From sequence record PP445229.1: a stretch of 64,000 nucleotides of DNA. One strand, written 5' to 3'. This document shows, piece by piece, positions 57,787 to 60,551 of this stretch (positions are counted from its first letter, which is position 1; the number at the start of each line of letters is the position of its first letter). The stretch comes from Escherichia phage EC.W2-6. Position numbers and translations under genes: made by a program. The notes under the pieces were generated by a model that did not search any database, was not told the DNA's origin, and saw only the letters and a program-made list of their open reading frames with translations.

Positions 57787-57862
57787 GCTTAATCTTTCTC
57801 CTGTATTGTGCCGTAGTCATGCCTATGGTCATAATTTATCTGATGCTTTAAATCCTTCCTGT

Positions 57863-57890
57863 AAGCCTCCTAGTGAGGCTTTTCTCTTTT
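57863..57890 (+). terminator. rho-independent terminator
   Basis: AAGCCTC-CTAGT-GAGGCTT hairpin followed by TTCTCTTTT. Confidence 0.6.
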
Positions 57891-58090
57891 ATGAGGTGAT
57901 TGTATGCCTTACTCCCTTTTAGCTCGTTGTGGTGCGTTACAGGCCGCTTATTATTGCTTTACAAGCCGTTTTCTATGATGTATCACGCGCCCCCGCTCTT
58001 TTACCTCCTGATTTCTTCCGGTGTCCTACCGACAATAAAATAAATTCCTTTATAAAACAGTGAGATGAAAAATAATTTGAAAAAAGGGTA

Positions 58091-58118
58091 TTGACATGAT
58101 TTTCCTTTATAGTAATAT
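58091..58118 (+). promoter_or_regulatory. sigma70-like early promoter (TTGACA-N16-TAATAT)
   Basis: Consensus -35, 16-nt spacer, good -10; preceded by an A-rich UP-like tract. Confidence 0.55.
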
Positions 58119-58296
58119 GAATCCCGTAGTAAGCAGTAAGTAACAACAAGTAGTAAAAACTCCTCGATAGGTGATTAGCATCACGGTAAAAGGCTTCAAC
58201 GGGGAGCGGTAGGAATACCGACAGTAAGACGCACAATGAAGGTGCTACGCTCTTTAAAAATCAGGCTAGAAAGTGAAAATATTCTTAAAAAGAGTA

Positions 58297-58325
58297 TTGA
58301 CACCGAAAACAGCCTGATTCATAAT
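58297..58325 (+). promoter_or_regulatory. sigma70-like early promoter (TTGACA-N17-CATAAT)
   Basis: Consensus -35 with 17-nt spacer; near-duplicate of the promoter at 58600. Confidence 0.6.
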
Positions 58326-58444
58326 AAGCACTCAGTCAGCGATGACTTAAAAAATCCCGCTCTTTAAAAACTTATCATCTTGCCTTTTCGCATAGATTCA
58401 CGCGAGATAAGGGAAAAGAATAAAAGAAGATGATAAAAAAGAGA

Positions 58445-58479
58445 TTGACAAGCTAACACGATGTGTTAAGCTGTAAATG
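58445..58479 (+). promoter_or_regulatory. possible weak promoter (TTGACA with poor -10)
   Basis: Consensus -35 only; no good -10 hexamer at 16-18 nt spacing. Confidence 0.25.
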
Positions 58480-58599
58480 CTACACCGCTCTTTAACAATA
58501 TGAATCATAAGTTAAGCATCACCGCTTAATCTTCAATCAAATAAAGCTGATTGATATATCCTCCCAATAGCGGGAACGACGAAAAAGATTAAAAAGTGG

Positions 58600-58628
58600 T
58601 TGACAGCGAAAACAACATGATTCATAAT
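58600..58628 (+). promoter_or_regulatory. sigma70-like early promoter (TTGACA-N17-CATAAT)
   Basis: Same architecture and nearly identical spacer to the promoter at 58297. Confidence 0.6.
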
Positions 58629-59549
58629 GAGCACTCACTAAGCAAATCACCGCTTCAGTGAAAAGCGTAACAACGGCTAACAGTTGCATAGTGTGAGAAA
58701 GCACACTGATAGATTTACCGCTCTTTAATAATTTAAACATTCTCCTATATCGGTTGAATATGTTAGATGATAATAACCATCGGATAACATACCAGATAAA
58801 ACGGTGTAAGATTCTCTAAACTATCAGAGAAAACAATCTTATAATCCCTTGCTGGAAACGTCACCACTGATAAACGGATTCATTGAGTGTACGCAAAGAT
58901 TTAAGCTAATCGCCCACGGTTAAGGGTAGCGGCGGTCATCGCTAACAAGGCGCTACAGTGAAAGAAGTTAATCAGGGTAGGCAAGCCCGAAGAATTAACG
59001 CTCAATTGAGAGCGGCGGGGAGTGGTTAAAAAGTGGCAAATTGCTATTTAACAATAAGGTTTAGTGTGAACGTTTACGATGTGAATGATTTGAGGCCACT
59101 ATTGATGGCGTACATAGTCAGTTTATGTAGTAAACTTGCCGAAAGATATAAAACGTCAGAACATTAGACGGTCAATGACTCTTTCACAATAGCATCCCGT
59201 TGTGGGCGATGGCTAGTGATTGAGAGTTGATACAAAAGGATAGGCGAGAGCGAAAGCAAAGTAGACGATATTGCCGACGGTTACAATAAACGTAACTAAT
59301 TAGAGTCGGACGCACTGCCTTATTGTGATGATTGATCATCGCTATCAGGTCGGCTTCGTTTATAGCGACTAATTAAAGATACCAGATGAAACATCACGGA
59401 TAAGGGGGCGGCAAGGTTAACTCCTGATAAGACCGCCCCGCTTACCTATAACTACTTAACAACGAGTGGTTATAGTTAAGTTAATAGTGACTTAAACAAG
59501 CTCATAGAGAGCGGGGCAATAGCGCCCTTACAAGTGAAAGGTGAATATC

Positions 59550-60449
59550 ATGGCTAAAATCTTTACTCTGGTTAACGAATCCGGTTTTAATGCTCTGGCT
59601 AACAACATTCGCAGTAATAACGCGGCGATCAAACAAGATGTTTCTAACTTCCTGTTAGGGCACTTACAGCACTTCCGCAGTAATGGTAAGAAGCTGGACG
59701 TATTGCAGTCGGCGGTTGACTTTCTGTTAACTGAACGTTTCCGTGATATGGATGTTATTGCCACTGCAATTACTTTCTTAACTCCTATCAAGTTTAACAC
59801 CGATGCGGCAAATGGTCGTAAAAAGTGGATTAATCTGGAAGGTGAGGCGAAAGCTAAAGAAGACGCGAAAGAAGCGCAAATTAAAACCAAAATGGAACAA
59901 AACCGCGCTCGCTGGTCAAATGCTTTCGAGAATTTTGCTTTAGGCCGTGAAATTGAAGTTGATAATCCTAACTTTTACAAGGGTTGCAATGACAACGTGG
60001 CGGCACACCTGCAAATCCCGGCGAAAAACAAGGAAGATTTTAATCAGGATATTTACGCTTTAGTTGAACGCTTGAATGCAATCCGTATTGAAGCCAAATT
60101 ATTGGCTGATGAGCGCAATGGTGCTACCAGCGATAACACTATCGCCTTAAGTGAAGAAGTGGGCAAAGTTAAGAAGTCATTCGACTCGCTCATCAAGAAA
60201 GTCACGGCCTCAACGGTAGCGATCTCTGATAACTACCTGATGAACGCATCAAGCAAGGAATTAGAATCACTCGATTCATACGCTGATGAAATGGAAAAGA
60301 CTGTTGCAGCTATGCAGGAGAAGTTAGAAAGTCTGCGCGGTCGTATCTCTTCAACGGTTGCTACCCGTACCGAACAAGCTGCGAAAGCAGAAGAGGAAGA
60401 AGTATTGCGTAAAGCGGCTGAAATTATGGCGGCACGTCAAGCGGCATAA
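59550..60449 (+). CDS. hypothetical alpha-helical protein (299 aa)
   Basis: First ORF after the ~0.9 kb untranslated leader; GAAAGG Shine-Dalgarno; terminator downstream. Confidence 0.5.
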   Translation: MAKIFTLVNESGFNALANNIRSNNAAIKQDVSNFLLGHLQHFRSNGKKLDVLQSAVDFLLTERFRDMDVIATAITFLTPIKFNTDAANGRKKWINLEGEAKAKEDAKEAQIKTKMEQNRARWSNAFENFALGREIEVDNPNFYKGCNDNVAAHLQIPAKNKEDFNQDIYALVERLNAIRIEAKLLADERNGATSDNTIALSEEVGKVKKSFDSLIKKVTASTVAISDNYLMNASSKELESLDSYADEMEKTVAAMQEKLESLRGRISSTVATRTEQAAKAEEEEVLRKAAEIMAARQAA

Positions 60450-60473
60450 GTAAGACAATTTAAATAAACATAA

Positions 60474-60506
60474 GGTGCTATCTTAACGGGTAGCGCCTTT
60501 TCTTTT
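60474..60506 (+). terminator. rho-independent terminator
   Basis: GGTGCTA-(10 nt)-TAGCGCC hairpin followed by TTTTCTTTT. Confidence 0.5.
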
Positions 60507-60551
60507 ATCAGTGCATTGATTCAGTGCATTAATCAAAGAATTTAATCAAAG

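Follow-up and report, generated by a model that had tools for sequence, protein, structure and literature searches.

The DNA analysed here, referred to as the window, is a stretch of 64,000 nucleotides from Escherichia phage EC.W2-6 (PP445229.1), a Kuravirus (phiEco32-like) coliphage with 100% identity to EC.W8-1 and 93-95% identity to phiEco32. A gap without genes extends from 57787 to 59549 between homologues of gp125 and gp124, and within it positions 58740-59549 lie between four sigma-70 promoters and the first early gene, the gp124 homologue. This leader region sits near one genome end in phiEco32, and the 1.8-2 kb stretch is blank or filled with spurious small ORFs in many deposited genomes. 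The original prediction described 58740-59549 as a segment without a credible ORF between the last early promoter and the first early gene, and its coordinates, content and position were all confirmed. It made no mention of a boxA after every promoter, a two-domain architecture, the RNA in distant relatives or a terminator after gp124. The promoters, boxA elements and gene features are as follows.

58091-58118, + strand: early promoter P1, TTGACA-16-TAATAT (promoter scan; position kept in phiEco32 and Paul)
58249-58259, + strand: boxA1, GCTCTTTAAAA, a perfect match to GYTCTTTAANA (consensus search)
58297-58325, + strand: early promoter P2, TTGACA-17-CATAAT (promoter scan and comparison with relatives)
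58359-58369, + strand: boxA2, GCTCTTTAAAA (consensus search)
58445-58472, + strand: early promoter P3, TTGACA-16-TAAGCT with an extended -10 TG (relatives and sequence reading)
58487-58497, + strand: boxA3, GCTCTTTAACA, the same as the E. coli rrn boxA (consensus search and rrn comparison)
58600-58628, + strand: early promoter P4, TTGACA-17-CATAAT, the last before the leader (promoter scan and relatives)
58690-58707, + strand: hairpin directly 5' of boxA4, placed like the boxB of rrn leaders (helix 1)
58720-58730, + strand: boxA4, GCTCTTTAATA (consensus search; many relatives read GCTCTTTAACAATTTA)
59538-59544, + strand: Shine-Dalgarno sequence of gp124, AAGGTGA (sequence reading; conserved in the alignment)
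59550-60449, + strand: first early gene, the gp124 homologue, 299 amino acids, always directly 3' of the RNA (PHROG 13018, function not assigned)
60472-60509, + strand: intrinsic terminator closing the promoter-RNA-gp124 unit (terminator scan; equivalents in relatives)

Four sigma-70 promoters have been described as early promoters in phiEco32 (PMC8948821), and it is from this published mapping together with the sequence that we predict transcription of the leader. Because P4 is the last promoter and ends at 58628, its transcript would carry about 915 untranslated nucleotides. Searches of the + strand from the last promoter to the start of gp124 revealed no terminator-like sites, no phage-sigma (gp36) promoter was present inside the leader at up to one mismatch, and no tRNA or tmRNA genes were found. 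Likewise, we found no discrete 3' end, either a terminator or a known processing site, between the RNA and gp124. Distant relatives L029 and L025 have an equivalent of the terminator after gp124, and the SU7 record annotates it as well. The gp124 protein offers no functional clue: it had no sequence match in the PDB, its helical AF2 model (pLDDT 79.6) had no Foldseek match in the PDB, and comparison with Pfam gave weak coiled-coil matches only. The leader itself has no similarity to E. coli genomes, indicating that the RNA is not host-derived and that this genome collection holds no prophage copies.

The boxA sequence GYTCTTTAANA is the NusB/S10 site of host rrn operons. This gamma-proteobacterial consensus (PMC5725501) is matched perfectly at four + strand sites (58249, 58359, 58487 and 58720), at distances of 40-160 nt from the preceding consensus-like promoter, and seven times across the whole window against 0.48 expected matches. 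The alternation of promoter and boxA is kept in every relative, with three to six boxA copies in every Gordonclarkvirinae locus and two to three in each of eight distant relatives. The corresponding rrn leader sequence, containing CTGCTCTTTAACAATTTATCAG, occurs in 5426/5426 E. coli genomes at a median of 7 copies. Both boxA3 and the boxA4 of many relatives equal the rrn leader over 13-16 nt, and GCTCTTTAACAATTTA is identical to it over 16 nt. A boxB-like hairpin precedes boxA4, where three of the six pairs of helix 1 (58690-58707) covary and one position shows four pair types; before boxA1 and boxA2, candidate hairpins were seen by eye. This order, hairpin and then boxA, is that of rrn leaders rather than of a lambda-type nut site. 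The sequence after boxA4 reads AAUUUAAACAUUCUCCUAUAUCGG and contains no UGUGUGGG-like element, and no GU-rich boxC was found downstream of the boxA elements. No N-like protein family was detected among the 8 (Pfam) or 7 (PHROGs) proteins scanned near the locus, which comprised gp124, five (Pfam) or four (PHROGs) early genes downstream and two genes upstream of the promoters. A further boxA-like sequence, GCTATTTAACA (59043-59053), was not counted because it is mismatched at C4, a position important in boxA (PMC5725501), and is base-paired. In metagenomes, a 19-mer of boxA and its flank matched many contigs, with the RNA present in 6 of the 80 tested; a guess that the remaining contigs were rrn leaders found no support, as six that were checked carried no rRNA gene.

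Downstream of boxA4, the consensus fold of the leader has two multi-helix domains, each of them closed, and then a series of 3' hairpins.

58732-59030, + strand: RNA domain 1, multi-helix, with a long-range closing helix (A1 columns 44-56 with 334-347; helices 3-14)
59031-59049, + strand: inter-domain hairpin, invariant in sequence, overlapping the 5' half of the boxA-like GCTATTTAACA (helix 15)
59051-59326, + strand: RNA domain 2, multi-helix, closed by the 10-bp helix ACAAUAAGGU/GCCUUAUUGU (helices 16-27)
59327-59528, + strand: row of 3' hairpins, with the invariant single-stranded UACCAGAUGAAACAUCACGG among them (helices 28-36)
59327-59340, 59348-59370, 59405-59439, 59446-59475, 59477-59494, 59500-59512 and 59513-59528, + strand: the 3' hairpins one by one (helices 28-36)

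The + strand fold contains 231 pairs, with 99.2% of cells paired. Compensatory double changes were observed at 75 of these pairs compared to 4-10 in slid controls, and none of 500 shuffles equalled this number. G·U cells far outnumbered A·C cells (553 versus 15), identifying the + strand as the structured strand, and the minimum free energy z-score was -8.4 for the leader versus -0.4 for adjacent coding sequence. In a generic test for structured RNA, compensatory changes therefore exceeded the controls and were specific to the + strand. Many compensatory pairs fall in helices 3-14 of domain 1, the 5' half of which is weakly conserved in distant relatives. The strands that close domain 2 (59051-59060 with 59317-59326) have undergone compensatory swaps in distant relatives, from AAUAAGG/CCUUAUU to AAUUUGG/CCAAAUU. 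Among the 3' hairpins, the GGGGCGG...CCGCCCC stem-loop that had been noticed from the letters alone is real, pairing 59405-59411 with 59433-59439 and covarying at five of seven pairs (helix 31). The degenerate repeated segments reported alongside it are present and conserved, but their structural contexts differ, with one forming a hairpin loop and one a stem, and they do not form a repeat family. For the 3' hairpins, a covariance model built on 59326-59443 detected exactly one copy per genome. Two predicted contacts were discarded: helix 2 of RNAalifold, which joins the flank of boxA4 to the Shine-Dalgarno sequence of gp124 (GGUGAAU), was set aside because it shows no covariation and by eye is lost in distant relatives, and kissing loops via GGUUAA motifs, proposed by eye, were dropped as not conserved in distant relatives.

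The leader is 802-814 nt long in 97 phage records. Its diversity is 0.10-0.14 compared to 0.25-0.32 at four-fold degenerate sites of gp124, so that it evolves 2-2.5 times more slowly. Measured against synonymous sites it experiences purifying selection, and it is not a spacer. Unpaired columns are conserved as much as paired ones and include many invariant motifs. All eight metagenomic relatives, whose gp124 proteins are 47-70% identical, have two to three boxA elements and a leader of 870-936 nt, and a profile of the leader alignment matched 8/8 of them with E-values of 1e-25 to 1e-107. Nucleotide similarity was detectable even where gp124 is only 47-49% identical. The original prediction had proposed structure conservation in related phages as a check, and the fold passed it both by covariation in the close set and in the distant set, where the structure derived from close relatives alone was 77% paired versus 36-44% when slid. 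An Rfam covariance search, proposed with it, matched the window to no known family. Run at permissive thresholds on the window and five relatives, the search of Rfam 15 (GOLLD, ROOL, OLE, group I/II introns, 6S, riboswitches and leaders included) gave no match near a gathering score; the best scores were 15-27 bits against gathering scores of 34-167 and were scattered and inconsistent between relatives. In Salmonella phage 7-11 we found no homologous RNA: the phage has neither a boxA nor a profile or covariance-model match, and gp151, the protein encoded first in its early region, bears no relation to gp124. A scan of IMG/VR with a 14-base motif returned noise only.

Together, the + strand covariation, the selection, the lack of a conserved ORF, the position downstream of early promoters and the absence of terminator-like sites on the + strand as far as gp124 support the earlier suggestion of a long structured leader or non-coding RNA. 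The explanation we favour on balance is that this region makes up the body of a large non-coding RNA with an independent fold, which would form the 5' 0.8-0.9 kb of the immediate-early transcript and be made as an rrn-style, boxA/Nus-modified unit. Host sigma-70 RNA polymerase would start at the four tandem near-consensus promoters, and nascent transcripts would soon expose an rrn-identical boxA, with a hairpin before it as in rrn leaders. We infer that NusB-S10 on boxA, together with NusA, NusG and SuhB, would assemble an rrn-type elongation complex that is Rho-resistant, fast and RNA-chaperoning. Such a complex could cross the 0.9-1.4 kb of untranslated RNA while folding it co-transcriptionally, then continue into gp124 and partly past the terminator 3' of it. 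The RNA, with its two domains, 3' hairpins and invariant unpaired motifs, may have a sequence-specific function of its own, most likely as a stable RNA or RNP during host take-over. BoxA is known to shield long untranslated RNAs, such as rRNA and CRISPR arrays, from Rho (PMC7665894). Against the Nus/Rho part of this explanation, the leader is C-poor (C 18%, G 24%) and highly structured, so that Rho may act on it poorly even if no Nus factors are present; moreover, a single boxA after P4 would be enough for antitermination, which leaves four copies unexplained.

A more tentative extension is that the locus specifies an undescribed class of structured phage RNA of about 0.8-0.9 kb, with rRNA-like biogenesis, that acts in trans after release in the first minutes of infection. 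In that case it could serve as an RNP scaffold, divert a host factor or defence sensor as a decoy, or assemble into an RNA particle by itself. However, the RNA adjoins the ribosome-binding site of gp124 and occurs only together with that gene, and a purely cis role fits this equally well.

One close counterpart is the E. coli rrn leader (boxB-boxA-boxC; NusA/B/E/G, SuhB and S4), which shares tandem strong promoters, a hairpin followed by an identical boxA, and then a long, highly structured untranslated RNA. In the rrn leader a single boxA follows P1 and P2, whereas the phage has four promoter-boxA cassettes. The phage also lacks a GU-rich boxC, and its structured RNA is unrelated to rRNA and precedes protein-coding genes; its Nus dependence is a prediction. 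In phage T7, also a virulent coliphage, a perfect boxA (813-823) lies between promoter A3 and gene 0.3, so that the early leader (A1-A3, boxA, RNase III site R0.3, gene 0.3) likewise combines tandem sigma-70 promoters with a boxA before the first gene. In T7 the leader spans about 175 nt and there is a single boxA, whereas the leader here has four boxA elements, about 830 nt and two multi-helix domains supported by covariation. The boxA elements of CRISPR arrays (PMC7665894) and of the suhB 5' UTR (PMC5725501) share the same GYTCTTTAANA ahead of a long non-coding transcript, and Nus factors at such boxA elements block Rho termination (Stringer et al. 2020, PMC7665894; Baniulyte et al. 2017, PMC5725501). 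Each of these host loci contains one boxA, and that of suhB is repressive and near the start codon compared to 830 nt from the ATG here. Lambda nut and HK022 put sites are also phage early-transcript elements 3' of early promoters that confer termination resistance, but nut sites have the order boxA-boxB whereas the hairpin comes first here, and put RNAs, at about 70 nt, contain no boxA. The ornate non-coding RNAs GOLLD, ROOL, OLE, HEARO and raiA resemble the phage RNA in exceeding 500 nt, in their many covarying helices in closed domains and in their conserved unpaired motifs, and GOLLD and ROOL also in phage association. Unlike them, the phage RNA, which matches no Rfam model in sequence or structure, these families included, is an mRNA leader and not a stand-alone gene, and it is confined to a single coliphage clade and its relatives.

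The strongest alternative is a purely cis-regulatory 5' UTR with no role beyond its own transcript, which would act on gp124 and the early mRNA by controlling stability, RNase III/E processing and initiation of translation, in the manner of the leader of T7 gene 0.3 with boxA and the R0.3 site. The layout of promoter, boxA and first gene is the same in T7, about 10 nt separate the final hairpin from the Shine-Dalgarno sequence of the gene that the RNA always directly precedes, and promoters, RNA, gp124 and terminator form one conserved unit with no terminator between RNA and gp124. Yet a leader of 800-900 nt that contains two closed multi-domain folds as well as numerous invariant unpaired motifs goes far beyond what known bacterial or phage 5' UTR regulators require, the sole predicted Shine-Dalgarno contact is the discarded helix 2, and the RNA persists at the nucleotide level beside strongly diverged gp124. 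We regard this as a serious possibility, although one that we would not expect to hold.

A decoy or sponge is an unlikely reading, in which massive early RNA with up to four boxA elements and invariant motifs would titrate NusB/S10 or another host RNA-binding factor and thereby cripple a host defence or the synthesis of host rRNA. The locus has four boxA elements where one would do, all behind very strong promoters and the same as the host rrn boxA, and the invariant single-stranded motifs suggest binding partners. In work by Friedman et al. in 1990, transcribed boxA on multicopy plasmids reportedly competed for a host factor. This reading presupposes action in trans, however; tandem promoter-boxA cassettes could also be explained by duplication, and phiEco32 already owns a dedicated sigma-70 transcription inhibitor, gp79 (PMC8948821).

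About equally unlikely is a cis-acting RNA antiterminator, comparable to HK022 put or Bacillus EAR, that would bind polymerase and allow read-through of the intrinsic terminators of the early operon. A strong terminator follows gp124 in all relatives with the remaining early genes beyond it, and the authors of the study of 7-11 call an undefined antitermination strategy likely in this phage group (PMC8948821). Known RNA antiterminators are, however, about 70-120 nt rather than 800 nt, boxA already offers a protein-based route, and we found no sequence or Rfam similarity to such elements.

Small proteins overlooked by annotation are a highly improbable explanation of the leader. Some depositors annotate four to five small proteins here, and a 19-codon ATG ORF (58760-58819) is open in 21/21 close relatives. 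This ORF has no Shine-Dalgarno sequence, its amino-acid changes are scattered, it is missing from distant relatives, and its variable bases are accounted for by covarying helices 5, 6 and 8; the annotated small proteins of CHD5UKE1 lie on the antisense strand. The longest ORFs in 58740-59549 are 44 aa on the + strand (GTG, 59033-59167) and 51 aa on the - strand (59184-59339). As the original prediction of no credible ORF would have it, no ORF of at least 25 codons is common to all 21 compared genomes, the best + strand ORF occurring in 7 of 21; the pattern of substitutions has no 3-base periodicity, and indels of 1 nt occur throughout the region. The leader thus lacks the combination of conserved ORF, ribosome-binding site and codon-position bias that marks protein-coding sequence. 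A DNA-level element (a replication origin or a packaging or injection signal) or a neutral spacer conserved through close kinship would suit the conserved length and the location near a genome end, but can be given very little credence in view of the G·U excess and compensatory changes, which point to single-stranded + strand RNA, the slow evolution relative to synonymous sites, the conservation at 47% protein identity and the absence of iteron-like repeat families.

Large, highly structured non-coding RNAs without known function are rare, and OLE, GOLLD, ROOL, raiA and HEARO occur mostly in organisms that are hard to manipulate. By contrast, work on the transcription programme of phiEco32-like coliphages spans more than 15 years, and their host is E. 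coli K-12-compatible. An RNA in such tractable coliphages makes genetics, Nus and Rho mutants, structure probing and cryo-EM immediately feasible. The four promoter-boxA cassettes suggest that a virulent phage hijacks the host rRNA antitermination and chaperone machinery. If so, Nus-factor biology would extend beyond lambdoid phages, rRNA, CRISPR arrays and suhB, and the finding may answer the question raised by the study of 7-11 of how early transcription passes terminators in this phage group (PMC8948821).

The leader, the stretch at 58740-59549 (+) that holds no conserved ORF, lies in a conserved region: over 57900-59700, Escherichia phages EC.W8-1 and EC.W14-3 match it at 100% identity, and phiEco32, SU10, Paul and further members of Kuravirus/Gordonclarkvirinae reach 93-97%. 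In phiEco32, where the gene-free gap is 1.94 kb, four sigma-70 promoters located where the early cluster begins drive the early genes (PMC8948821), and the SU10 genome paper treats the gap merely as a "spacer region" with promoters (PMC4281155). We found that the leader lies immediately behind consensus sigma-70 promoters with an rrn-type boxA after each, and that the feature is more elaborate than the original prediction: four promoter-boxA cassettes feed a conserved RNA of ~0.8-0.9 kb. Its parts are:

57787-59549: gene-free gap between homologues of phiEco32 genes 125 and 124, containing the leader
58091, 58297, 58445, 58600: the four promoters, all carrying TTGACA as a perfect -35
58249, 58359, 58487, 58720 (all +): boxA1-boxA4, perfect motif matches to GYTCTTTAANA
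58690-58707: covarying hairpin upstream of boxA4
58720-58730 (+): boxA4
58732-59030: domain 1, closed by a long-range helix
59031-59049: short inter-domain hairpin
59051-59326: domain 2, closed by a 10-bp helix (ACAAUAAGGU/GCCUUAUUGU)
up to 59528: seven 3' hairpins after domain 2
59538-59544: gp124 Shine-Dalgarno sequence, with the gp124 ATG at 59550
60472-60509 (+): strong intrinsic terminator (12-bp stem and T-run) directly 3' of gp124

The interval from the last promoter (58600) to the start of gp124 contains neither another promoter of this kind nor a terminator-like site on the + strand, and no phage-sigma promoter was found inside the leader. GC skew over the window (1-64000) is positive at 1-25 kb, turns negative over ~25-55 kb and returns to positive at ~56 kb; these blocks match blocks of opposite transcription direction, the last beginning with the leader's early region.

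Using the gamma-proteobacterial boxA consensus GYTCTTTAANA (PMC5725501), we counted seven matches in the whole 64-kb window against 0.48 expected. All four promoters have their boxA 40-160 nt downstream, and promoters alternate with boxA elements in all relatives examined. Over 13-16 nt (GCTCTTTAACAATTTA), boxA3, and boxA4 of many relatives, match the rrn leader of E. coli exactly; that leader sequence occurs in 5426/5426 E. coli genomes, with a median copy number of seven. The phage elements also follow the rrn order of hairpin and then boxA. The principle has a precedent among virulent coliphages, on a far smaller scale than here: T7 has a single perfect boxA (813-823), which follows promoter A3 and precedes gene 0.3. 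The stretch between boxA2 and the third promoter (58370-58445) is 86 nt in the window versus 270 nt in phiEco32, Paul and most relatives, ~185 nt being missing; the inter-cassette spacers are thus plastic, and the length of the leader body is fixed. An invariant boxA-like element, GCTATTTAACA, occurs at 59043-59053 (+) in 21/21 close relatives, one base off rrn boxA at the critical C4. Its halves are base-paired, one in the inter-domain hairpin and the other in the domain 2 closing helix; because of the mismatch and the pairing it was rejected as a fifth boxA and left out of the count, and it may represent a boxA that is masked or has decayed.

The leader has no conserved coding potential, in agreement with the original prediction that no credible ORF separates the last early promoter from the first early gene. 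Its longest ORFs encode 44 aa (+) and 51 aa (-). In an alignment of 21 distinct relatives, no ORF of at least 25 codons was common to all (the best on the transcribed strand reached 7/21), three-base substitution periodicity was absent and 1-nt indels were dispersed across the leader. A 19-codon ATG ORF (MLDDNNHRITYQIKRCKIL; 58760-58819, +) is open with identical start and stop columns in 21/21 Gordonclarkvirinae genomes; it was rejected as a gene, as it lacks a Shine-Dalgarno sequence, has its variable bases within covarying helices and has no counterpart in distant relatives. The EC.W8-1 GenBank record places a 67-aa hypothetical protein (XDJ04174.1) at 58537-58740 (-), antisense across the last promoter and boxA4, and the CHD5UKE1 annotation spreads ~14 tiny ORFs over the whole gap; both look like gene-caller artefacts within a non-coding RNA region.

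The leader forms an RNA structure on the + strand, and purifying selection acts on it. We found it in 97 phage records, always 802-814 nt long and at 74-100% identity, and its mean pairwise diversity is 0.14 versus 0.31-0.32 at gp124 third-codon or four-fold degenerate sites (0.098 versus 0.247 in 16 genomes of one gp124 allele group). RNAalifold predicted 231 pairs from the 21-sequence alignment, with standard pairs in 99.2% of cells. Both sides changed in 75 pairs, compared to 4-10 after sliding the 3' partners by 1-3 columns, and the covariation score was 0.267 versus at most 0.066 in slid controls; 0/500 shuffles reached the observed pairing and covariation values. The pairs hold 553 G·U cells and only 15 A·C cells, and as each G·U would be a mismatch on the other strand, the + strand is the folded molecule. 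The single-sequence minimum free energy is -261.7 kcal/mol (z-score -8.4); the z-score of the complementary strand is -5.3, and that of the adjoining coding sequence (860 nt) is -0.4. Conservation of unpaired columns equals or exceeds that of paired ones (diversity 0.129 versus 0.148), and unpaired motifs without variation include ACGGUUAA, UGUAGUAAA, UUUAUAGCG and part of UACCAGAUGAAACAUCACGG. This covariation-backed fold behind four sigma-70 promoters supports the long structured leader or non-coding RNA first proposed from sequence alone. The GC-rich stem-loop singled out there is real (59405-59411 pairs with 59433-59439, 5/7 pairs covarying); the two "repeated segments" both exist but are not a repeat family, one being a hairpin loop and the other a stem.

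The whole layout is conserved across deep divergence. Logan metagenome contigs carry gp124 homologues at just 47-70% amino-acid identity, and eight such loci formed our deep-relative set. Each has 2-3 + strand boxA elements, an 870-936 nt leader from last boxA to ATG and at least ~1.4 kb (maximum 3.4 kb) of upstream sequence without genes, and all eight match the Kuravirus leader profile (E-values 1e-25 to 1e-107). Structure conservation in related phages, a proposed check, was borne out: when the structure derived from close relatives only was applied to these sequences, it was 77% paired versus 36-44% in slid controls, with 85 versus 34-45 double-change pairs. The 3' hairpins and the helix that closes domain 2 show clear compensatory swaps. 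A covariance model of the RNA core (59326-59443) found exactly one copy per genome with no second match in the window, was positive in 6/80 metagenome contigs sharing a 19-mer of boxA and flank, and had no match in Salmonella phage 7-11 or T7. Equivalents of the post-gp124 terminator occur in two distant loci (L029, L025), kept at 48-70% gp124 identity. Downstream early genes therefore need read-through, and the conserved unit comprises tandem promoter-boxA cassettes, the ~0.85 kb RNA, gp124 and the terminator.

Several further loci bear mention. In five distant gp124 loci (L025, L027, L029, L030, L154) the gene-free region upstream of gp124 (upstream of position 3000) is 3.0-3.4 kb, of which ~1.5-2 kb lies upstream of the promoter-boxA cluster beside divergently oriented genes and could represent terminal repeats or further RNAs. 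Phage 7-11 has ~1 kb gene-free (right-end sequence L024, 5865-6917, -) upstream of its first early gene, 151, without boxA consensus or Kuravirus-leader similarity, and its first early protein is unrelated. The 19-mer GCTCTTTAAYAATTTAAAC lies ~2.1 kb upstream of a C4 antisense RNA (RF01695, P1/P7-type immunity) in metagenome contigs L178 and L191, suggesting that P1-like elements carry boxA too; many further matches fall at contig ends. In L160 (IMGVR_UViG_3300049856_000074), an 18-nt motif (TGATGATTRATCATCGCT, 2437-2454) without a core covariance-model match at E<0.01 either matches by chance or belongs to a rearranged copy.

The suggested Rfam covariance-model search returned no family match in the window or relatives, no tRNA genes were found, and E. 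coli genomes showed no similarity to the leader. gp124, a helical protein, gives no functional clue: it matches no PDB fold and no functionally characterized family. We argue that the RNA has a specific function beyond that of a spacer, based on its size, two closed domains and invariant unpaired motifs. A purely cis role in the stability, processing or translation of gp124 and early mRNA and the boldest form of a trans role, as an RNP, decoy or particle, are rated alike, each as possible but less likely than not. A strict need for antitermination at the leader is argued against by the absence of boxC, by the expected sufficiency of a single boxA and by the leader itself, which, being C-poor and structured, may be a weak Rho substrate anyway.

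The four promoters were previously known; the searched literature and databases contain no description of the boxA cassettes or the structured RNA, the two primary phiEco32 papers lying outside that scope. boxA recruits NusB-S10, which with NusA, NusG and SuhB renders RNA polymerase Rho-resistant (PMC7665894; PMC5725501), and it protects long untranslated RNAs including rRNA and CRISPR arrays (PMC7665894); the rrn complex is also reported to chaperone RNA folding (PMC8632103). Given these activities and a boxA after each promoter, we propose that the phages rely on the host elongation complex of the rRNA type both for the synthesis and folding of a large leader RNA and for carrying transcription onward into the early genes.
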